From a virus, in the IMG/VR virus record IMGVR_UViG_3300044627_004253, positions 2,513 through 66,512 of that record: DNA of 64,000 nucleotides; one strand, 5' to 3'. Shown piece by piece: positions 352 to 64,000 of the stretch. The position numbers were made by a program, and so were the translations under genes. The notes beneath the pieces were generated by a model. That model ran no database searches and was not told where the DNA came from. It saw only the letters and a list, made by a program, of their open reading frames with translations. The first letter of the stretch is position 1. Each line of letters opens with the position of its first letter.

Positions 352-584
352 AACTTTGATTTAACGTGGTCGCGAACAAAATCATCGATAGAGTCAAAAG
401 TATTTATGTAAATAGCACGAGGAGTTATATGTATACGGAGAGCGTCATAAATAGAATTATAAACACTATTCCAAATAGAAATATCAACACTATCCCAAAC
501 AGAATTATAAACAGAATCATCAACAGAATCATGAACAGAATCATGAACAGAATTATTAACAGAATTAAATAACGTATTTTTCAT
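348..584 (-). CDS. small protein with S-V-x-[DN] tetrapeptide repeats
   Basis: NSVNNSVHDSVHDSVDDSVYNSVWDSV; 12-bp DNA period; directly downstream of the promoter motif at 627-654. Confidence 0.7.
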   Translation of the reverse strand: MKNTLFNSVNNSVHDSVHDSVDDSVYNSVWDSVDISIWNSVYNSIYDALRIHITPRAIYINTFDSIDDFVRDHVKSKL

Positions 585-2745: not shown

Positions 2746-2867
2746 TTGTGTGTCGTGTGGGTGTTATATTTAATATTGAACAGAGATTGTGCGGTCTGCT
2801 TTATCCTCTATCGAAGTCGATAATCACTTCATGGAATCGAGGGCTGACTCGCAATATCGAATTTTAA

Positions 2868-2980
2868 TGAGCGCGGCAGGATTTGAACCTGCAATGCCGG
2901 GGCGCATGTACTTATGGGTCATCGCTGCACCCTCGAGTATCCGTCCTGTGGCTGGTGTATTTGCATTTCACAACGCGCTC
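2868..2980 (-). ncRNA. oversized tRNA-like RNA 1 (113 nt)
   Basis: GAGCGCG/CGCGCTC-A acceptor, Leu-like D region, GCAGG-TTCAAAT-CCTGC T arm; no canonical anticodon arm. Confidence 0.65.
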
Positions 2981-2987
2981 AAATTAA

Positions 2988-3110
2988 TTGATCCATTCAG
3001 AGATTCCATGCGAACGGCAACGCACTCTGAACCTTGTGTCGCCCAGTTAAGGGTTAGAGCCGCTTTGGTGAGTAACCCGTCCGAAGACTTGCTCTACACT
3101 CATGGATCAA
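2988..3110 (-). ncRNA. candidate structured RNA (multi-way junction)
   Basis: closing helix TTGATCCAT/ATGGATCAA; internal helices TAGAGC/GCTCTA, CCTT/AAGG, TTCAGAG/CTCTGAA; cUUCGg loop on the minus strand. Confidence 0.5.
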
Positions 3111-3114
3111 ATTG

Positions 3115-3283
3115 TTCTTACCGCTGTCAGAGTCCGGCTCAAGCGCTGGGCGCTTTTACTTCGGTTTGCATACACTCTGACACTGTCTGCTATCATCGCT
3201 AAAACACTTCTTTCGCATACTAAGCCAAGTGTTAAGCAATACCATGGTAGACTCGCAGTCGGCTTGTACAAGCACGGTAAGAA
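3115..3283. ncRNA. candidate structured RNA
   Basis: closing helix TTCTTACCG/CGGTAAGAA; TGTCAGAGT/ACTCTGACA and AACACTT/AAGTGTT helices; strand uncertain. Confidence 0.4.
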
Positions 3284-3298
3284 AATTTATTGACCACA

Positions 3299-38697: not shown

Positions 38698-40212
38698 TTA
38701 CGTCCAGGGCATTATCCTTTGATACTCATATTCTCGCTTCACCGGAATAGCTTTGGCCTCTGCAAATCTGGACTTAGATATAAATAGGAATTGCTTGATC
38801 GCGTACGTAGCCGCGTCTTCCAAATCAATTCCTCCTCTATGATCTTTTCTTTTTTTACTTTTATCTTGATCTAGCTGTCTTGCGTACTCTTCAGAATAAA
38901 GACTGGAGATGCCTACGATAGCCGAATAATTTCGACCCATTGTTTTACACTCAGATAAATCCATTGAATCTATTTTGACTTTATTAACAGAAGACGGGAC
39001 AGCCTGGGCGAAGGCTATAGCTACAAAGTTTCTTTTGCGACATAGCTCTTCTAACGCATCCGCAGCGGCCTGATAAATATGGCGCGTTTTGTCCCCCGCT
39101 TCAGCCATGGAACCGAGAGCGCCACCGATCCAGTCTAGAATAACGTAATCTACCTTACGTCCTGCGTCGGCTTCATATGTATCTATCTCATCTTCTATTT
39201 TCCTTATAAAATTAATATCAGCTTGCTTCTGAAAGTTACCCCAGTTAATAAACTGAGCTGACCCGGAATTAAGCAGCATAACTTTTTGGCGAAACTCTAA
39301 ATATCTTATTTTCTCCCCTGCTGTTAACTTGTCTTTAAATATACCTTGGCTAATGCTGCGGTGAGGAATACTGCAGCGGCTAGATATTATTCTCCGATAA
39401 AGTTCATCGTGTTTTTGCTCTGTGGATATATAAAGGCCAAACGCATTATTACTATATGAAAATGCGCAAGCAAGCTGACAAGCAATAATAGTTTTACCGG
39501 ACCCTGTACCGCCTATGAAAAGATAAGCGTGCCCTTTGCGGAATGAAGATATTGCTTCATTCAACCTGGGGATATCGCAATCTAAGGCTTCAACAATTAT
39601 TTTGTTAGGGTCATCAAATTCATCTATTTCAGACAATTTAATTCTATCGGGTACATCCTTTAGAATTTTACTCCCGTTATCTAGGGAATTAATTAATTCA
39701 ACATCCTTGTCACAAAGAAGAGAAAGGTCATCGAGATTTACACCCAGCAGAGAAGCGCTGTTTATAATTTTCTTAGCTCGGACGGTCTTTAAATAATACG
39801 TAATACCTGTGTTGACAAGATATACTATATTAGAATCGCACTCTAAATTAGCTATACTATTTTCAAAATAACTGACAAGCTCCTCAACTTCAGACAGCAT
39901 TACAGACTCGCCTTTACTGGCTTTTTCTGTTAAGAATATTCGAAGTTGATTTACTGCTACAGGTTTAAAAACTTTTTCTCCGGCACCTTCAAATAAACTA
40001 TTGTATGATTTAATTACCTCATACAATATATTATTATAGGTGTTTTCAAAGTCATCTGTATGTTTGTCTTTAGTTCCTGATTTTAAACAGAGAACCAATT
40101 TAAACTTTTTAAAACTTTGCATGTCATTGCGACACACAGCTAGAATAGCTTTCTCGAACCACTCTTTATTTTTATCTATGTATACTTCTAATTCTTTTGG
40201 GCATGCAGCCAT
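38698..40212 (-). CDS. dnaB: DnaB-like replicative helicase
   Basis: GGTGSGKT, YISTEQ, YVILDW, AFAQ, ISKSRF. Confidence 0.85.
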   Translation of the reverse strand: MAACPKELEVYIDKNKEWFEKAILAVCRNDMQSFKKFKLVLCLKSGTKDKHTDDFENTYNNILYEVIKSYNSLFEGAGEKVFKPVAVNQLRIFLTEKASKGESVMLSEVEELVSYFENSIANLECDSNIVYLVNTGITYYLKTVRAKKIINSASLLGVNLDDLSLLCDKDVELINSLDNGSKILKDVPDRIKLSEIDEFDDPNKIIVEALDCDIPRLNEAISSFRKGHAYLFIGGTGSGKTIIACQLACAFSYSNNAFGLYISTEQKHDELYRRIISSRCSIPHRSISQGIFKDKLTAGEKIRYLEFRQKVMLLNSGSAQFINWGNFQKQADINFIRKIEDEIDTYEADAGRKVDYVILDWIGGALGSMAEAGDKTRHIYQAAADALEELCRKRNFVAIAFAQAVPSSVNKVKIDSMDLSECKTMGRNYSAIVGISSLYSEEYARQLDQDKSKKRKDHRGGIDLEDAATYAIKQFLFISKSRFAEAKAIPVKREYEYQRIMPWT

Positions 40213-41339: not shown

Positions 41340-41510
41340 TTACTTCGTTTTTAAAATTCTAGATATCCTTCGTGCAAGCAACGCTGCGCCCTTACGTTCT
41401 GAGCGCTGCCACACTGTAAAATTTTCAAAACCTACTTTTTTATAATTTCTATTGTCACGTAAAGCTTTAGCGCACTGCGCACGGATAAGGTCAATAATTT
41501 TTTTATTCAT
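41340..41510 (-). CDS. 56-aa basic peptide
   Basis: MNKKIIDLIRAQCAKALR...; ATGA overlap with the helicase stop. Confidence 0.5.
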   Translation of the reverse strand: MNKKIIDLIRAQCAKALRDNRNYKKVGFENFTVWQRSERKGAALLARRISRILKTK

Positions 41511-43981
41511 AAAGCCTTTTCTTTAAAAGATTGTTCAAGTTCATTATAGCTATCTACAATTATAATTTCATAACCTTTTTCCATATAAGTTTTTACACGA
41601 GCCATGGACTCGCGATTTAAAGCCATAGCCCCAGCTCCCCTGGCCTGTCCCATACTAAACATGAAATCGAATACGACGCCACATTTTTTATCAGGTCTGA
41701 CCTCAGCAAGTCTCCCGGGTTTCTGGATAGTAGATGTGTTTGCTCCTCCTCCACTTAGATTTATTAGAGCTCTAACATGATTGAAGGTCACGCCCTGCGC
41801 ATAAATTTCGCTAGCTAAACAACGTTTAATCTCGTCGCCTCGCATACGCTCCATCAATGCTTCTCGTTCCTTCTTTGTCATACGCTTGGCCATTGCAATT
41901 GTTCCGTCTTGGCCTATCCAGTCTAGATAATACTCTGCTTGGTCTTCATTTTTAATGAATAGCAAAGTTTGCCATTCTTGCGGTAGCAGTTCATGACAAA
42001 TCCATTTAACGGCTTTTGCTACACGCTCCCCTTGAAACAACTGACTTTTATACGCGCGGTCTCTGTCATCTAATTGTCCGTTCAATGGTACTACAATCAT
42101 GTAAACTATTAAAGGGCAAACCGCTCCCTCGGCTACCGCTTCTTTAAAAGTTCTTTCTGCCAGCACGGGCCCTATCAAAGCTTCAATCAGAATATCGCGT
42201 TGATCAAACCTGCCTTTTAAAGTAGCACCATAACCAAATCTACGCGCCTTATCGAATTTAGCTAATTCAGGTAAGCGGCTATTTGTAACGCAAGCATGTG
42301 GTTCATCTATTAATAATAATTTACAAGCGCTAGCATCGCATTTATGCAAACTATCCATACTAGCAACATTAATATCATCACCGGGCGCTTGAGTGGATCC
42401 TGCGCCTATAAGTTTCACTTCTCTATGAGGTAAAGATTCTTTTAGATCTTCGTATAATTGCTTTACCAAATCTGCACCTGGGGCCGTGACCACAGTATTG
42501 ACGTTTGGAAATGCACGTAGCGTATTTTTAATGAGCGTTGTATTATGCGTGATTGTGCAGTCACCTAGAAGGAACAATTTATCAGGCCCTTCTAACTCAA
42601 ACCCGTAATAATTATCGTATCCTATAAATTCAACTTTAAAACCTACGTTTAAACAATTAAATTTATTTTTACGTATTCTCTTTTTACGATGTACCCTAAA
42701 TGGTATTTCATTAGTAGCGCCTCTAATCATAACACGCCAGTAAATACCTTCAGTTCCATTCTGAGAATGTTTAGTGACTTCTTTACATGTAGCGCCAAAT
42801 CCTAAGCTGTTACATAAGAACGCAACATCCTCTGCTAGCTTTTTATGTTTAGATATAAAACCGCAATTACTTATACCGTTGCTTTCACCGTCAGTATCCA
42901 GTAATCCTGCCAACAACTCCAACCGCTGTTTTCTATCTGCTAGTAAGTATTCTTTTCTTATGCCTTCGTGTTTACTCCTATAAACAAAACATTGGCTTAT
43001 AAAGTTTGTATCTCTGCACGTATTTCCCGTGCCTTTATTCAGCACATAGCGCTTAGTAGTTGCCAAACCTGCTTGTGTGATATTATCAGATAATAGCAAA
43101 GAACTCTGCGAGGCCCACCGATCTATTTCTTCCCAGACTTCAGGCTCAGCGTTGGTAAAAGTAATTCCATCGCTGTGCCCAGCGCCTAGCCAAGCACCGT
43201 AAATATAAGCAGGGATGAAGTGTTCTTGCGTACTAAATACCAATTCAGCACGTCGCATTTTTCGAACATGCTTAAACCATTTAGTATTTTTGATCCACTC
43301 TTTAACCGATATATTTTCAGTTTCACCTGCCCGATTCCATTTATTATTCTTAGACTCATTTGTACGCTGCACATGTAGAATATGATCTTCATTGCATGTC
43401 CATGTCATTCCTTTATAATTTGGAATAACTTTATACATTTTACCGTAGCCCACGATACAGCCTGTTACTTTACGTGGTTTAGAATCAGGCCCCATTACAA
43501 AATCACCATCTTTTATGTCTTGAACAAATTTAATTGTCCCATCAAACATTAAAACTGGCGTATTTAAACCCAAACATTTTCCGTACCTTGTTGGTGCGCC
43601 CAGTAAACCGCTGCAATTAGTATTAAGAAAAGCAGTAAGAAGTTCCTGCTGCCTAAATCTAAACCCACACATAAGATCCAATCTAGGTTTTGGAAAAGGT
43701 ACGCGTAAATCATAAAAATTAATTTTAAAACCTTCTTGTTCTAGAAAGGTTTTAACTTTAGACCACATACCCTGCATAGTCTGAATAACATTATAACCGT
43801 CAGTATTTTTTATTACTGTATACAATTTATTAACAGATACCTTGGTTATTTTTTTCCAAGGATTGTTAGGATCTTGAATTAAAGATTTTTCTTTATAGGT
43901 TAGAAATTTTTCTAACTTCGCGTTTGAGGGGGCCAACGTTAATACGGAGTCATCCCACATTAAATGAATTTCTTTGCTCAT
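41507..43981 (-). CDS. superfamily 2 (UvsW/SSL2-like) helicase containing an intein
   Basis: APTRYGK|TT, LIDEPH, GYGAT, QGVT, QKPGR. Confidence 0.85.
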   Translation of the reverse strand: MSKEIHLMWDDSVLTLAPSNAKLEKFLTYKEKSLIQDPNNPWKKITKVSVNKLYTVIKNTDGYNVIQTMQGMWSKVKTFLEQEGFKINFYDLRVPFPKPRLDLMCGFRFRQQELLTAFLNTNCSGLLGAPTRYGKCLGLNTPVLMFDGTIKFVQDIKDGDFVMGPDSKPRKVTGCIVGYGKMYKVIPNYKGMTWTCNEDHILHVQRTNESKNNKWNRAGETENISVKEWIKNTKWFKHVRKMRRAELVFSTQEHFIPAYIYGAWLGAGHSDGITFTNAEPEVWEEIDRWASQSSLLLSDNITQAGLATTKRYVLNKGTGNTCRDTNFISQCFVYRSKHEGIRKEYLLADRKQRLELLAGLLDTDGESNGISNCGFISKHKKLAEDVAFLCNSLGFGATCKEVTKHSQNGTEGIYWRVMIRGATNEIPFRVHRKKRIRKNKFNCLNVGFKVEFIGYDNYYGFELEGPDKLFLLGDCTITHNTTLIKNTLRAFPNVNTVVTAPGADLVKQLYEDLKESLPHREVKLIGAGSTQAPGDDINVASMDSLHKCDASACKLLLIDEPHACVTNSRLPELAKFDKARRFGYGATLKGRFDQRDILIEALIGPVLAERTFKEAVAEGAVCPLIVYMIVVPLNGQLDDRDRAYKSQLFQGERVAKAVKWICHELLPQEWQTLLFIKNEDQAEYYLDWIGQDGTIAMAKRMTKKEREALMERMRGDEIKRCLASEIYAQGVTFNHVRALINLSGGGANTSTIQKPGRLAEVRPDKKCGVVFDFMFSMGQARGAGAMALNRESMARVKTYMEKGYEIIIVDSYNELEQSFKEKAL
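42542..43576 (-). mobile_element. intein (345 aa) in Walker A with in-frame LAGLIDADG domain
   Basis: GK|CLGLNTPV, CNEDHIL, GAWLGAG, LLAGLLDTDG, YYGFEL, ITHN|TT. Confidence 0.92.
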
Positions 43982-44008
43982 AACAATAGTACCTACTGCA
44001 GTATAAAA

Positions 44009-44491
44009 TTAAAGAGGAATCAGTTCCTCTACATCAAATCTACCATAGCCGTACTGCCCGCCCCAAGGGCTAAGACCTAAAAACATACCAGTGAACCTGA
44101 ATATGTCTGAAAGCCTAGCCACATCTGGAGCGAACAATGTTTCTTTATCTGTTCTCGTAACTAATATTTTAATATTCAATACCGTATTTTCGCGAATAGC
44201 TTCAAACATCTCAAACTGCTGTTTGCCTTTGTTTGTGTAATTGCGTCGGTATAAAACTAATTTAGGCGGATCTATATTCATCTGAGGACGAATAGTATCC
44301 GTGTCAATATCATCCATATGTAAAGCTTCCGCTGCTTGCTTAAAAGTCCACCCCCACTGAGCTAGATCCACAGCTAGTTTGCTGTCACTGTCCCGGCGGA
44401 ATCTTCGTACATTTTCACGTGTTCGTTGATTGCCTAGCCAGGAGGCTGTTAGTTTAATTTTAAGATTGTACAGCGTAGCTAAATCACTCAT
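44009..44491 (-). CDS. RAMP/Cas7-like (RRM-fold) protein
   Basis: YNLKIKLTASWLG, FRRDSD...FKQAAEAL, FEAIRENT, C-terminal G-loop FTGMFLGLSPWGGQYGYGRFDV. Confidence 0.55.
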   Translation of the reverse strand: MSDLATLYNLKIKLTASWLGNQRTRENVRRFRRDSDSKLAVDLAQWGWTFKQAAEALHMDDIDTDTIRPQMNIDPPKLVLYRRNYTNKGKQQFEMFEAIRENTVLNIKILVTRTDKETLFAPDVARLSDIFRFTGMFLGLSPWGGQYGYGRFDVEELIPL

Positions 44492-47028
44492 AGTTGTATT
44501 AGATTAACAAGTGCAGGTTCCAGTTCTTTCGCATGATCGCAAACCAGAATCTGCGTATCACTAGCTTCTAACTGCTGACCAAGATTTATCAACAATTCTT
44601 TTAGATTTTCTCTGGCTTCTTCATCTAAATGAGTTGACGGCTCATCCAACACAAGGAAACCCAAATCAGGTATGACCAATTGTTGCACAGCTAAAAGAAA
44701 GGCAATTGACAATCTTACCTTTTGTCCGCCGGATAACTTATCATGGTCAAACAGCACTTGTCCAGGTTCATCTATACGATAAAACATTAAGCTAACAGGC
44801 TTTTCAGAATTTGGAATAATGGCGAAGTTAGCATCCATAATTTCTAAATTTTCTTGAGTCATAGCGACAAGGCTGTCAAACTTATGTTGTACATAAGCCA
44901 TTGGAATACCTTGCCTTGAGAACGCAGAAACTATTTTCTGTAATTCGGTTATTACAGTCCTTTTGTCCTCATCAAGTTTAATCTTATTTTCAATTTCAAG
45001 AAGCCGCTTCTTAACACCGTCCGCCTGCGCTTTCAGTTGTTTAGTCTTAGCTTGTAATTCTGTGAATGCTTTATTCTTTTCTCTTAAGAATTCAATAGTA
45101 TTTACATTCGTGTCTTCTACGACTGTTTTTAAATGCAGAGGAAACTGAGTATATAACTCATCTGCTTTACTCCGGCTGTCTGATATTATTTTTGTCAGAA
45201 AAGCTATAGAAGTTTGATCTGCCGCTATAGCAGCTAAAAATCTATTGCATTTTACATTAGTGTCATTTGCAATATTGAAAGCATTTAAAAGAATACTTAA
45301 ATTCGCTTCTATGAATTTTATATCATCATTAAGTTTATTTGTGTCATAAAGTAAGAATTCTTTCTTTTCAGCCTCAGAAAACTTATTTACAATAGAGTTA
45401 ACATAATCATAGTCTGCTGCTATCTTAATTATTCTACCATTAAGTTCGTTTCTTTTTGCTTGTTGCGCAGTCAAAGAGGACAACTGACTTTGCAGCTGCG
45501 TTACATCTTCGTCTACGCCTGCCTTAAGCAACGCTATATTGGTTTTATATTGTTTAATGTAAAAATCTAACAGCGTCTGTCTTTGTGTAAGCTCATGCTG
45601 TGTAATACGGGCGGAGTTAGATAAAGCTGTATGTCTATCCTGCAACTCTTTTAACTGCTGTGTAGCTGCTGCTAATTTTTTATCATATACGGCAAATCTC
45701 TCTTTTAATTTTTCATGAGAAACATTTTCTCCGCATACAGGGCAATCGGCCGAGCACTGATTAGCTAGAGCAATCTTACAAGTGTCTGTAATAGTTTTAA
45801 ATAAAGAAGCTTCGTTTGAAACCCCATGCATGTAAATTTCAATCTCTTCTAAGCTCTTTGTTAAGCTGTTAACTTGAGCAACAAGCTTGTCTGCCAGTTC
45901 ACGATTTTTCTTACCTTCTTCAGTGGCCTGATTCAGATCCTGTTTGTATTTTAATCTATCTTGCTGGGATTTAATCCTAGCATTGAGATCGCTTATAACT
46001 TCCGCAGAAACTTCATCTGGGCACTCAACACGGGCTTTTTGCAATTCCAGCTTATTATTATATAGTCTCTCAATCAAGCTAGTATACTCTGTATGCCGGG
46101 AGACCATGGTATGTTTCTCGGATAAAGCCAATCTTGCTTTACTGATATTAGCGTTAACATCGGAAATGTATGCTTCTAAAGAAGAAACAGAATCAAATTT
46201 ATGTTTCAGCTCGCCAGAAATATTATTTAACGTATCGGTTAATCCTGCGTCATGCCCTCGCACGGAATTCGTATTCCCGTGCATTATAGATGCGCTTGAA
46301 TTAATAGTATCAATGAGTTTAGTCCACTCGTTAAATAAATTAATTTCAGACTCGTAGTTTCTGGTACGCATCAACGTATTCTCTGAAGCGGCTAACTCAG
46401 ATTCAGCTATATTTCTACTACTCTGTAACTCATCGTGTAGCGTGGAGAAATCTTGAATCTCAGCCGATAACATCTTTATCTTACCAGCAGCTACATCTGC
46501 AACTTTTTGCATATGGCCTAACAATAATAATTTAACCAGCAACTCCTCTCTTTCTGCCTGGGAACCAAAAAGGATTTTATCGAGTTGTCCTTGCTCTGGG
46601 AACACTGCGTTGTCCATGGCATATTTATCCACACCAAGAACATCGTTTAATGTCGCCTGAATTTCATCCGCACGCGTGAACGTCTCGCTTTTTATTTCAT
46701 TTCCATTCTCGTCCAGTTTACATAGCTTTCTAGAAGACGGTGACCCTACTTTTCTAGACAAGCGGTATACGCTACCTTGCGCATAGAATTCAATCTCAGC
46801 AAACCCCTGGGTAGGAAGTTGCTCAATTGTAGGATCTACTTTTCTAATAAAAGATTCTTGTGTTTCCTTAGCAGGAGTCCACCCGGTGAATAAGAAATGA
46901 ATAATTTTTAGAATAGTAGACTTGCCTGCGCCGTTTGGGCCCATCAATCCGATCACAGCGCCATCTAGAGTTTCTTCCAGATGTCTGTGCCTACCCAAAT
47001 TTTTTATTAACAGTTTTTTGATTCTCAT
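44488..47028 (-). CDS. sbcC: SbcC/Rad50-like ATPase
   Basis: GPNGAGKS, Q-loop PEQGQ, coiled coils with CPVC hook, LSGGQ, LVLDEP, CDH. Confidence 0.92.
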   Translation of the reverse strand: MRIKKLLIKNLGRHRHLEETLDGAVIGLMGPNGAGKSTILKIIHFLFTGWTPAKETQESFIRKVDPTIEQLPTQGFAEIEFYAQGSVYRLSRKVGSPSSRKLCKLDENGNEIKSETFTRADEIQATLNDVLGVDKYAMDNAVFPEQGQLDKILFGSQAEREELLVKLLLLGHMQKVADVAAGKIKMLSAEIQDFSTLHDELQSSRNIAESELAASENTLMRTRNYESEINLFNEWTKLIDTINSSASIMHGNTNSVRGHDAGLTDTLNNISGELKHKFDSVSSLEAYISDVNANISKARLALSEKHTMVSRHTEYTSLIERLYNNKLELQKARVECPDEVSAEVISDLNARIKSQQDRLKYKQDLNQATEEGKKNRELADKLVAQVNSLTKSLEEIEIYMHGVSNEASLFKTITDTCKIALANQCSADCPVCGENVSHEKLKERFAVYDKKLAAATQQLKELQDRHTALSNSARITQHELTQRQTLLDFYIKQYKTNIALLKAGVDEDVTQLQSQLSSLTAQQAKRNELNGRIIKIAADYDYVNSIVNKFSEAEKKEFLLYDTNKLNDDIKFIEANLSILLNAFNIANDTNVKCNRFLAAIAADQTSIAFLTKIISDSRSKADELYTQFPLHLKTVVEDTNVNTIEFLREKNKAFTELQAKTKQLKAQADGVKKRLLEIENKIKLDEDKRTVITELQKIVSAFSRQGIPMAYVQHKFDSLVAMTQENLEIMDANFAIIPNSEKPVSLMFYRIDEPGQVLFDHDKLSGGQKVRLSIAFLLAVQQLVIPDLGFLVLDEPSTHLDEEARENLKELLINLGQQLEASDTQILVCDHAKELEPALVNLIQL

Positions 47029-48133
47029 AAAGTCGTTTGTCGATGAAGGTTTCTATTAAGCTGGCAACTGAGGCGGATGGGTCACATAAAGAGTGAGCTA
47101 AAGCAAAAGAGTCAGATTCGTTTGGGAAGTAATCCCCAATAAAGTCTTCTGGCTTTTTATCAAAGGGATTACTAACTTTTCTTTTTGCTAAATTCAATAA
47201 TTTGAATCCGGCTTGCTGTAAGTTAGATATACGAATAATGCATTTATTAGTATCTAGAATGCGAGCAACCCGCATATATAAATCTGTGAACTTTGGATCC
47301 TTCCTCACTAATACCGTGGGATTTTGATTTTTCAAAGCATCGATCTTTAATAGTAGATTATTAGCTTCTTCATTAGTACGAATATCTTCTGCTATGATCG
47401 GCTTATTCAACTGCAGCGGAATAGAGTCAAACATGACTCGCCCCGTGTCCTCGATTGTTATTAATGAAACAAACTTTTCTACACTCTCATTCCGGGAGCA
47501 TAGCTCTGTAGAGCCAGGGTATCCGATCAGACAGTTATCCTTTCGTATATACTTATGTGTGTGGATGTCACCAAGCAGAATACAACTATATTTATCGTAG
47601 GGTAGATCAGATATTTGAAGAACTTTATCTCCAGCATCAAAGGAAGCAAAGTCTTTAACCAATGTGTGGAACATCATTATATCTGCGTGAGGAAAAGTGT
47701 CTTTCCTGGCCCTAAAATCGTCTGGAGCCATATCAGGGACCCCGTAGACTGTGTACTCTTTTCCGTTATTCCCTTTCATTGTCACTAACTGAAAGTCAAT
47801 ATCATAAATAGCACATTGTCCATTTTCTTGCATCTCTTCTTGCAGGACCTTAATCCAGGAAGGATGGCACTTATCGTGATTTCCGGTAATGATAAATAAC
47901 TTAATACCGTTGTTAAGAAGCTTTTGATTTAAATGTAAAAGATCCGCAATGTTTTTACTGCTAGGTCTCTTAGAATTTAAAACATCACCAGCGCAGAGGA
48001 TGTACTCAGCCCCATTTTGTTTTGCTAAATCTACAATTCTAAACACTGAATCTGTAAAGTCCTGCGCGCGAGAAGCCTTACCGAATTGCATATCTCTAAG
48101 GTGCCAGTCTGCTGTATGTATAATTTTAATCAT
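46991..48133 (-). CDS. sbcD: SbcD/Mre11-like nuclease
   Basis: HTADWH, AGD, GNHD, LGDIH, YPGS. Confidence 0.92.
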   Translation of the reverse strand: MIKIIHTADWHLRDMQFGKASRAQDFTDSVFRIVDLAKQNGAEYILCAGDVLNSKRPSSKNIADLLHLNQKLLNNGIKLFIITGNHDKCHPSWIKVLQEEMQENGQCAIYDIDFQLVTMKGNNGKEYTVYGVPDMAPDDFRARKDTFPHADIMMFHTLVKDFASFDAGDKVLQISDLPYDKYSCILLGDIHTHKYIRKDNCLIGYPGSTELCSRNESVEKFVSLITIEDTGRVMFDSIPLQLNKPIIAEDIRTNEEANNLLLKIDALKNQNPTVLVRKDPKFTDLYMRVARILDTNKCIIRISNLQQAGFKLLNLAKRKVSNPFDKKPEDFIGDYFPNESDSFALAHSLCDPSASVASLIETFIDKRLYENQKTVNKKFG

Positions 48134-49028: not shown

Positions 49029-49059
49029 TGTGTTTTACGTTTTGGTTTGGTTTGGTTTG

Positions 49060-51386: not shown

Positions 51387-51689
51387 TTAACCATCAATGA
51401 TGCGGAACTTAGAACTTCCGTTCACTAACAGTTTAAGGCGACCCCAAAACTCTTTACCCGTTTTAATCGGGGTATACTTTGCCGCGTGAGCGCAAAGCAT
51501 AGCCCTTTGTTTTGGCGAGCAGCGGCGAACCCATTGCGGGCACATCGCTTCCAAGTTCTTGCACACGGCGAGCTTTATGAACATGCTCACCTCCTTTTTT
51601 GTGGTGACTGGTTTCACCAGTTCCAGCGCTAACTCTGGACGGCATCCGCGTATCTCTGATGCCAGAATTGTTTGCCTAGCTAGTTTCAT
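51387..51689 (-). CDS. small basic hypothetical protein
   Basis: 100 aa, between promoter copy 6 and a terminator. Confidence 0.6.
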   Translation of the reverse strand: MKLARQTILASEIRGCRPELALELVKPVTTKKEVSMFIKLAVCKNLEAMCPQWVRRCSPKQRAMLCAHAAKYTPIKTGKEFWGRLKLLVNGSSKFRIIDG

Positions 51690-62646: not shown

Positions 62647-64000
62647 TTATCCTGTTACAGCGAATCCTTTGAGAATTGCTTTGTATGTTCCCAGCAAACG
62701 AAAGGCAAGTGTTTGTGAAGCACTTCCTACCATGGGTCTAGTCATTGTGACACTAGTGTTCGGCACGATACTTACAATCGTTGAATTATATTTGAGTGTG
62801 CCTGAACCATTGGTTGTTAGTGGCAACGCGGAGCCTCCTAGTGTAGAAGCAACTTGAAAGGTGGTCGGAGTAGAGCCAACAACAAAATAAATTCTATTGA
62901 TTACAATCCCTGTTGTTGTCGTAATCACAGAAAAAGAAACTTCATCTCCATCACTCAATCCATGTGAGGCTAAATTTACAGTATCGCCTGCATCAGTAAA
63001 CGTAACAGCTATACCTGTTGTTAATGGGGTGTTTGTTCCTGTAACTTGCATACCAGTAGCTAATCCAGTGGTGCTAGCCATTGTGATGGTAGTTGAACCC
63101 GCTGTTGTTGTACCCGTTAATGACACTGGTGTTGGCGCTCCCCAATTATTTGTCAATGTCAATGTTCTAGTTGCCCCAACAGTAGCAGTACCCAAGTTTG
63201 CGAAAAATGTTTGAAGTTCGGTTTGGCTAAGTTTGCAATTCGTTAAGGAAAAATCGTATTTAATGTTGGTTATTGCTATGGACGCCAAAGAAGTACATGT
63301 AGCCACTGTGCTAATAAAGGCTGTAACATTGCTAGCATTTAATGCAGGCACTCTATTAAGTATATAGCAATTGCTAAACATATTAGTCATAGTTGTAACA
63401 ACGTCAGTATTAAAAGCTGGAACATATAATAAGTTCCAGCAACTAGTAAACATCGAAGACATGTCCGTAACTTTGACAGTGTTAAACAACGGAACAGTAG
63501 TCAAACTGTAACACGTAGTGAACATTGCTGACATATTAGTAACGTTCGCAGTGTTAAATAGTGGCACCTGTCTTAAGCTGTAACAGCTAGCAAACATATT
63601 GTTCATATTAGTAACGTTCGCCGTATCGAACAAATCAACACTTGCTAAACTATAGCAAGAGCTAAACATACTATTCGTTGCAGTCACAGCAGCCGTATTG
63701 AACATAGGTACGGTTATTAACTGATAGCAACTAGCAAACATCGAAGACATGTTTGTAACTTTGACGGTGTTAAACAACGGAACAGCAGTCAAACGGTAAC
63801 ACGTAGAGAACATTGCTGACATATTAGTAACGTTCGCAGTGTTAAATAGTGGCACCTGTCTTAAGCTGTAACAGCTAGCAAACATATTGTTCATATTAGT
63901 AACGTTCGCCGTATTGAACAGCGGTGGTGCCACCAAACTATAGCAAGAGCTAAACATACTATTCGTTGCAGTCACAGCAGCCGTATTGAACATAGGTACG
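62647..64000 (-). CDS. BspA/DUF285-like repeat protein (probable tail fibre/adhesin), N-terminus outside window
   Basis: 24-aa repeats PLFNTANVTNMxxMFxxCYSL, then Thr/Gly-rich beta domains. Confidence 0.75.
   Translation of the reverse strand, partial: VPMFNTAAVTATNSMFSSCYSLVAPPLFNTANVTNMNNMFASCYSLRQVPLFNTANVTNMSAMFSTCYRLTAVPLFNTVKVTNMSSMFASCYQLITVPMFNTAAVTATNSMFSSCYSLASVDLFDTANVTNMNNMFASCYSLRQVPLFNTANVTNMSAMFTTCYSLTTVPLFNTVKVTDMSSMFTSCWNLLYVPAFNTDVVTTMTNMFSNCYILNRVPALNASNVTAFISTVATCTSLASIAITNIKYDFSLTNCKLSQTELQTFFANLGTATVGATRTLTLTNNWGAPTPVSLTGTTTAGSTTITMASTTGLATGMQVTGTNTPLTTGIAVTFTDAGDTVNLASHGLSDGDEVSFSVITTTTGIVINRIYFVVGSTPTTFQVASTLGGSALPLTTNGSGTLKYNSTIVSIVPNTSVTMTRPMVGSASQTLAFRLLGTYKAILKGFAVTG
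63370..64000. repeat. 72-bp coding tandem repeat with a 288-bp higher-order period
   Basis: GCTAAACATACTATTCGTTGCAGTCACAGCAGCCGTATTGAACATAGGTACG at 63661 and 63949. Confidence 0.85.

Follow-up and report, generated by a model that had tools for sequence, protein, structure and literature searches.

To our knowledge, RAMPs were for a long time known only from CRISPR-Cas, and a phage-borne relative that uses guides (VIPR) was shown in 2026. Here we describe a solo RAMP encoded in a stretch of 64,000 nucleotides of viral DNA (the window; bases 2513-66512 of the 66.5-kb IMG/VR virus record IMGVR_UViG_3300044627_004253, which is estimated to be 36% complete). The protein has distant relatives in the Vipr proteins of phages and in CRISPR Cas7, and it belongs to neither CRISPR-Cas nor a canonical VIPR system. 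In a clade of large phages that have not been cultured (contigs of up to 204 kb), its gene belongs to the fixed core and is present in single copy, in the order Mre11/SbcD, Rad50/SbcC, RAMP and XPB-like superfamily 2 (SF2) helicase; translational coupling to one neighbor or to both is frequent. The role that we propose tentatively, and to which we give slightly less than even weight, is that of a non-catalytic binder of single-stranded nucleic acid that would serve the Mre11/Rad50-XPB-like helicase module without sequence programming.

The available portion of the preprint on VIPR describes a phage RAMP of ~20 kDa (Vipr) and vrRNAs composed of 9-16 YNNGG pentamers and a 3′ tail, which lie in long intergenic regions beside vipr, usually with one accessory gene (10.64898/2026.04.26.720920). 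The same portion distinguishes seven types, with the repeat variants NNNGG, YNNNG and NNNNG and with accessory genes called nucleases or helicases in types III-V; some systems have one or atypical vrRNAs, some vrRNAs needed a language model to be recognized, and 81% of the loci are proviral or cellular (10.64898/2026.04.26.720920). According to the accessible part of a second preprint, the Vipr of Escherichia phage SUSP1 reads GGY via H17, R138, D177, W178 and R179, where W178 stacks on G2 while D177 and R179 read G1 and Y3, and an alpha-helical bundle holds the skipped target base (10.64898/2026.04.26.720927). The words Rad50, Mre11, recombination, replication, XPB and SbcC are absent from the accessible text of the first preprint (10.64898/2026.04.26.720920), whose 2,664 proteins and 667 typed loci may include, by way of PSI-BLAST and undiscussed, the family described here.

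A reading of the window made from its sequence alone, before any database was searched, had proposed a RAMP/Cas7-like fold for the product of this gene, and structure prediction supported it. The AlphaFold2 model (22-row alignment) reached a mean pLDDT (predicted local distance difference test) of 92.6 and a pTM (predicted template modeling score) of 0.86. Foldseek comparison of the model with the PDB produced 106 matches at E <= 0.001, and the list was headed by type VII Cas7, Csm3, Cmr4 and Cas7-11 (E 4.8e-7 and up; TMq 0.6-0.71), while a sequence search of the PDB with a shallow alignment returned no match. A second structure comparison was carried out with VIA-align against 48,161 representative chains. 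The RRM/ferredoxin-like core, beta1-alpha1-beta2-beta3-alpha2-beta4, is present in the model, and so is the glycine-rich loop of the RAMP superfamily, which joins helix 2 to the last strand. As modeled, the protein appears to be a minimal RAMP, composed of its RRM core plus the loop rich in glycine and a long beta-hairpin, and nothing else. The gene and these elements are located as follows.

44009..44491, minus strand: RAMP gene, an open reading frame (ORF) of 160 aa with an ATG start; predicted minimal RAMP-fold protein and founding member of its family
44195..44260, minus strand: long beta-hairpin, candidate thumb, codons 78-99 (strands 78-87 and 90-99, tip NKGK, 22 residues; DSSP of the model)
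44036..44089, minus strand: glycine-rich loop, codons 135-152 (G-MFL-G-LSPW-GGQY-G-Y-G-R-F), between helix 2 and the last strand; best-conserved part of the family

The position of the gene is constant. The order SbcC-RAMP-helicase was found in all 18 distinct viral contigs retrieved via the RAMP, down to 28% RAMP identity, and these contigs share the arrangement SbcD ... SbcC, RAMP, SF2 helicase, followed by a 215-aa protein and a DnaB-like helicase. When 36 contigs, 18 of them new, were collected via the helicase, the RAMP gene lay between the SbcC and helicase genes in 35, and the remaining contig ends 8 nt upstream of the helicase gene. Because the helicase set was seeded from RAMP-bearing loci, the linkage is shown within that helicase clade and not across all phages. 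The gap from the SbcC stop to the RAMP start is -4 in 8 of 35 loci and at most 23 nt in 19; insertions of up to 1.4 kb between SbcC and RAMP, and of up to 3.3 kb before the helicase gene, leave the order constant in all 35. The variable RAMP-helicase spacers of five relatives contain small ORFs, not repeats, and in several higher-GC relatives (contig GC 55-62%) the RAMP frame extends 131-377 nt into the helicase gene. The RAMP gene occurs exactly once in each of the five genomes or contigs inspected. These data bear out the placement of the gene in a recombination block, and the sequence confirms the coupling to sbcC by an ATGA overlap and the position upstream of an SF2 helicase gene, as the sequence-only reading had stated. 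The neighboring features in the window are listed below.

44488..44491, minus strand: ATGA, in which the stop of sbcC and the start of the RAMP gene overlap (tcat on the plus strand; from the sequence)
44488..47028, minus strand: SbcC/Rad50-like ATPase, 846 aa (Pfam AAA_23, SMC_N, SbcC_Walker_B; phrog_77, E 8e-40)
46991..48133, minus strand: SbcD/Mre11-like phosphoesterase, 380 aa (Pfam Metallophos; phrog_100)
41507..43981, minus strand: SF2 helicase with an intein, 824 aa (Pfam Hom_end_hint, LAGLIDADG_3, ResIII, Helicase_C)

The NCBIfam Rad50 models scored well under their cut-offs on the window SbcC, and the Mre11/SbcD models were under the cut-off on SbcD. The helicase gene starts 27 nt downstream of the RAMP gene, and its intein (Hint and LAGLIDADG) occupies approximately residues 127-480; intein-free relatives are 479-520 aa long. 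The nearest solved relatives of this helicase are archaeal XPB proteins (profile against PDB, XPBII 6p4f_A, E 2e-16). The surrounding block encodes a DNA polymerase, a primase, a DnaB-like helicase, RecQ, a UvsX/RecA-like recombinase and a thymidylate synthase (Pfam, PHROGs, NCBIfam), and the large terminase is also encoded near it. Possible insertions were observed in the 1379-aa DNA polymerase, in the 887-aa terminase and in the thymidylate synthase, which has an HNH part. Prediction of a complex from the alignments of the RAMP and the intein-free helicase scored 0.00 against a mark of 0.32, a result that is uninformative either way. DNA nearly identical to 41507-48133 (at least half of the sampled words) was present in contigs of 14 runs other than the source run, from 14 studies of the lake water or freshwater metagenome category.

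The amino acid sequences of the family point to strong constraint. A word-index search identified 22 homologues of 158-169 aa (46-100% identity) with 40 invariant columns, and the motifs named by the sequence-only reading are consequently not due to chance. All of them are present in order in the 160 aa: LG at 19-20, RRFRRD at 29-34, E97-x-I99-x3-T103 and the glycine-rich loop G135-x3-G139-L-S-P-W-G-G-Q-Y-G-Y-G-R-F-D-V154. Among 127 diverse members G135 and G150 are kept in 100%, G139 and G144 in 98%, S141 in 97%, E97 in 96%, and R151 and F152 in 94%; the five glycines G135, G139, G144, G148 and G150 are kept at 86-100%, and position 143 is aromatic in 99%. In the beta-hairpin, a candidate for the thumb that in RAMPs intercalates into the bound strand, Y81, R83, F96 and E97 are also conserved. 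The conserved polar residues are R29/30, R83, E97, S141 and R151, and R29, R30, R33, R83 and R151 make up a conserved basic patch. Several RAMPs are ribonucleases and this gene lies among replication genes, two facts that would suit a metal-independent Cas6/Csm3-type ribonuclease cutting RNA in R-loops, primers or phage transcripts of the replication module. However, Arg, Glu and Ser are the only conserved candidates, and no conserved His, Tyr, Lys or Asp able to form a site of that type was found in the 127 members, which makes such an enzyme quite improbable.

In a profile search of 1.84 billion representatives, clustered at 50% identity, the family comprised 279 or more clusters at E <= 1e-3; of these, 205 passed <= 1e-10 and 41 passed <= 1e-30, and members of the 150 clusters listed were 66-256 aa long. 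No Pfam family was assigned to the RAMP in the 127 members, apart from one NUMOD1 match at 0.0045. The Pfam RAMPs model PF03787 matched 0/127 at E <= 0.01, a miss that carries little weight because RAMPs are known to escape sequence models. One of the 127 matched a PHROG of unknown function, and NCBIfam has no model for the window RAMP. Of four BFVD matches at E <= 0.001, one bears the name RAMP superfamily; the closest ESM Atlas clusters consist of viral proteins without names, and a RAMP cluster appears only at 0.79, which we treat as a lead. Searches of 50,697 GenBank phage records with tblastn gave no match for the RAMP (E 1e-3), SbcD (1e-10) or the helicase (1e-10), and no relative in culture was identified, while a 687-aa neighbor (phrog_1735) matched 478 phage records at less than 60% identity and is not diagnostic. 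A peptide-pattern scan, which divergent members could escape, found no family member in 185,579 prokaryote genomes, one per species, and no published account of such a RAMP protein was found in the literature. As judged from these sequence comparisons, the family appears to be large, undescribed and under strong constraint. In one subset (P0033, P0042, P0045; L072:4318-4977) we observed a conserved C-terminal extension of ~55 aa with the pattern ..LP.(E/K)F....(R/N)....D.I.........L..LS..E(L/I)LA..AF.., which may be a partner-binding module.

The relationship to Vipr is concentrated in the C-terminal region. When the family profile was run against all PDB sequences, the single RAMP matched was 36pp_D, the SUSP1 Vipr protein (E 0.29). 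Profile comparison with hhalign (127 rows against 46 SUSP1-type Viprs) gave 91.6% (E 8.1e-7) over only 44 columns, those of helix 2, the glycine-rich loop and the last strand, and against the single SUSP1 Vipr sequence 68.9%. In this register Vipr W178 corresponds to W143, D177 to P142 (P 75%, Q 16%) and R179 to G144 (G 98%); Vipr H17 and R138 fall outside the aligned stretch. In a control model of Vipr, strand 1 and helix 1 are separated by two helices, 27-36 and 43-57, whereas in the model of the window RAMP that region shows only short strands and no helix of four or more residues, so the Vipr-type bundle appears to be missing.

These observations have to be weighed against the possibility that the protein is a guide-RNA-dependent, Vipr-like effector, whose guide would be unrecognized or supplied in trans and whose SbcCD and XPB-like helicase neighbors would act as Cas3-like effectors against host or competitor DNA. 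The RAMP fold with its loop and hairpin, the homology of the loop to that of Vipr with the base-stacking aromatic kept, and the nuclease or helicase accessory genes of VIPR types III-V, together with systems having one or atypical vrRNAs (available portion of 10.64898/2026.04.26.720920), would all agree with it. On the other hand, two of the Vipr reading residues, D177 and R179, are replaced by P142 and G144, the bundle for the skipped base appears absent from the model, and the gene is part of a core replication block of deep conservation, not of a variable accessory locus. We consider a guided effector unlikely. It is retained in view of the incomplete genome of origin and of the guides that all studied RAMPs of this shape use.

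The search for guides bears directly on this alternative. The sequence-only reading had suggested a non-CRISPR guide; the principle has been demonstrated for phage solo RAMPs in VIPR systems (available portion of 10.64898/2026.04.26.720920), but no guide candidate was found for the window RAMP. As that reading had also noted, the 64-kb window has no CRISPR array, since TRF and a direct-repeat search yielded only coding repeats (12-nt and 72-nt periods), and none of the window ORFs submitted to Pfam (9), PHROGs (6 and 22) or NCBIfam (7), a set that does not take in every small ORF, belonged to a Cas family such as Cas5, Cas6, Cas8/10, Cas11 or Cas1/2. Rfam identified three tRNAs only. Pentamer arrays were sought with a GG phase count using a period of 5, a YNNGG pattern of six units allowing at most two mismatches, and a slip-tolerant dynamic-programming chain of Y...G pentamers, which was repeated for NNNNG and NNNGG. 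In the SUSP1 control these scans recovered four vrRNAs beside vipr, matching the published ones, with phase counts of 7-10 of 10, 32 overlapping pattern matches and chains of 12-15. They cover periodic guides, and guides without pentamer periodicity or from another element would escape them.

The 66.5-kb contig of the window remained at shuffle level, with a phase count of 5 of 10 and no YNNNG chain of 8. Pentamer chains were likewise at shuffle level in two complete relatives (G001, 196.5 kb; G002, 185.7 kb, with terminal repeats) and in a third, G004 (121 kb, 67% complete, RAMP 81% identical), and a chain score of 8 was reached in none of the 36 loci within 5 kb on either side of the RAMP gene. 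No pentamer array of any published vrRNA type occurs in the contig, in these three relatives or in the 36 loci. The lack of an array in two complete genomes and 36 loci speaks against a guided effector. A type II Vipr hidden Markov model found no match in five genomes carrying the window-type RAMP.

A further complete relative, G003 (204 kb), has its SbcC-linked RAMP at ~192.7 kb. More than 100 kb away, at 75019-75687 on the plus strand (L027:15019-15687), we observed a 222-aa ORF with a motif resembling the glycine-rich loop, followed at 75796-76986, also on the plus strand (L027:15796-16986), by 1.19 kb of arrayed YNNNG/YNNGG pentamers in which one-base slips recur periodically and whose chain score is 174.5. 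Although hhalign support for the ORF as a Vipr is weak (11-51%), the ORF and the array resemble a VIPR locus, of a different type and with an exceptionally long array. Since this genome also has the SbcC-linked RAMP, the two kinds of RAMP coexist as separate genes, another point against a guided role for the latter.

Several other candidate guides were discarded. The RNAs at 2.8-4.7 kb, offered as guides by the sequence-only reading, turned out to be tRNAs and coding ORFs, with no other Rfam match at E <= 0.1, and the ORF-free part of this region had no blastn match in G004. A 12-nt tandem repeat at 447-567 belongs to a small ORF on the minus strand that encodes tetrapeptide repeats, with paralogues at the start of the contig; no such array was found in G001 or G002. 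A TTTGG repeat of 3.8 units at 49041-49059 is at chance level, with three full units, and falls in a 31-nt gap between minus-strand ORFs (ends 49028 and 49060).

Other repeats and structures were recorded during these searches. Several small minus-strand ORFs (window 430-572; G000 1-640 and 2790-3095) start with MKN.. and consist of 12-nt repeats coding for the tetrapeptide x-S-V-x, and G004 has a 1.9-kb array of that motif with 159 copies. The region around 2950-3290 of the window is poor in ORFs and richer in GC and shows a tRNA-like T-arm/acceptor motif (GCAGGATTTGAACCTGC) beside tRNA-Leu; neither ARAGORN nor Rfam (E <= 0.1) found anything there, and blastn gave no match in G004. Nine copies of a 46-nt unit spaced at 72 nt (60-87% identity to the reference copy) occupy 63376-63997, inside an ORF at 62647-63993 on the minus strand, where they represent 24-aa protein repeats (phrog_22899) and not a CRISPR array. 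G003 carries an 18-nt repeat (ATCGGCAATGACGTGACG), a hexapeptide repeat if translated, in seven arrays that include both ends.

G003 1-112, 2813-3026, 39623-39733, 47332-47652, 51560-51646, 79001-79429 and 204006-204257: arrays of the 18-nt repeat

We return to the proposal that the protein is a non-programmed strand binder. The RAMP would bind single-stranded nucleic acid in extended form along helix 1 and the glycine-rich loop, and base stacking would be provided by the conserved aromatic residue at position 143, which is aligned with the stacking residue of Vipr, W178. Candidates for the bound strand are resected single-stranded DNA and either strand, RNA or DNA, of an R-loop or D-loop. The protein's action would be neither sequence-programmed nor catalytic, and the protein might work as an oligomer. 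In recombination-dependent replication or in the repair of phage DNA, it may be an accessory subunit that holds the strand or passes it on between the nuclease that processes the ends and the helicase. This proposal is supported by the behavior of the gene as a core gene, with its order kept in 18/18 and 35/36 loci, its single copy and the short gaps to SbcC, and by neighbors that are recombination and replication genes. That the protein would not be guide-programmed like VIPR is suggested by the pentamer scans at shuffle level, and that it would lack catalysis by the want of a conserved catalytic signature.

A number of points weigh on the other side. The binding, the substrate and the partner are all inferred. 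The studied RAMPs of this architecture, Cas7 and Vipr, are all users of guide RNAs, and a role without a guide would be unprecedented. A RAMP beside a helicase and a nuclease is also how RNA-guided interference modules are laid out, namely Cascade-Cas3, type IV Csf2-DinG and VIPR types III-V. The contig represents only 36% of its genome, the scans would let guides without pentamer periodicity or from another element escape, and the accessible text of the VIPR preprint states that a language model was necessary for some vrRNAs (10.64898/2026.04.26.720920).

A broader interpretation, that the family is a third RAMP lineage, neither CRISPR nor VIPR, working inside a viral Mre11/Rad50-XPB recombination machine either guide-free or with an unknown kind of guide, seems to us unlikely. 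Should the family branch at the level of Vipr or below it, RAMPs may have started out as subunits that bind strands in phage DNA-repair and replication complexes, with RNA guides acquired later. A family that keeps the RAMP core and the glycine-rich loop, that has lost the guide-reading residues and the arrays, and that is locked to Rad50/Mre11 and an XPB-like helicase widens the uses of the fold. It provides a concrete test of RAMP action without programmed guides, bears on the proposed viral origin of CRISPR effectors and adds a core gene, so far without annotation, to those of a widespread clade of large uncultured phages.

With respect to known systems, the Cas7 backbone proteins (Csm3, Cmr4, type VII Cas7 and the domains of Cas7-11) share 9-16% sequence identity with the window RAMP. 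In contrast to them, the window RAMP has neither an array nor other cas genes, its family has no conserved Asp after strand 1, and at 160 aa it is smaller than any listed Cas7-family subunit. Modules that combine a RAMP with a helicase or nuclease are found in type IV Csf2-DinG, Cascade-Cas3 and VIPR types III-V; here the helicase is XPB-like and the nuclease Mre11/Rad50-like, and unlike in those interference modules both are ordinary phage recombination genes and no guide was found. XPB acts together with the product of a neighboring gene, and among solved structures the window helicase is closest to the XPB chains of the archaeal XPB-Bax1 entries 6p4f and 6p66. Bax1 has a Cas2-like ferredoxin-fold domain; it is absent among the structure matches listed for the window RAMP, and we take the likeness to XPB-Bax1 as a lead only.

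Viral homologues of Cas proteins can be anti-CRISPRs, as stated in the available part of the preprint on AcrIB3, a viral Cas5 homologue that acts in this way and is 38% identical to the host Cas5 (10.1101/2023.06.24.545427). Given the Cas7-like fold, the window RAMP could similarly be a decoy Cas7 that poisons class 1 effector complexes of the host, a role that had been mentioned in the sequence-only reading. Unlike AcrIB3, its family has no sequence match to any Cas protein (Pfam 0/127; in the PDB only Vipr, E 0.29), and it holds a fixed position in 35/36 loci, as a core gene coupled to sbcC across hosts with contig GC of 55-62% and not as a variable accessory gene. Because it is a fixed core gene and resembles no Cas protein in sequence, we regard the anti-CRISPR role as very improbable.

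The closest counterpart is Vipr. Both are small, phage-encoded solo RAMPs outside CRISPR loci; in the models, both have a C-terminal half of three strands, helix 2, glycine-rich loop and last strand and share the same list of PDB matches, and 99% of the window RAMP family have an aromatic residue at the place of Vipr W178. They differ in that the window RAMP is 35 aa shorter, has P and G in the places of D177 and R179, and has no YNNGG, YNNNG, NNNGG or NNNNG arrays near its family members. Vipr belongs to a two-gene accessory locus with long intergenic flanks, whereas the window RAMP is a core gene between those for SbcC and the helicase, and while 81% of VIPR loci are proviral or cellular in the accessible text of the preprint (10.64898/2026.04.26.720920), the window family had no match in the 185,579 prokaryote genomes. 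The window RAMP lacks three tested features of VIPR, and its fixed context is a different one. Phage solo RAMPs as a kind were already known through VIPR, and the SbcC-linked family appears to be a form of them not described before.
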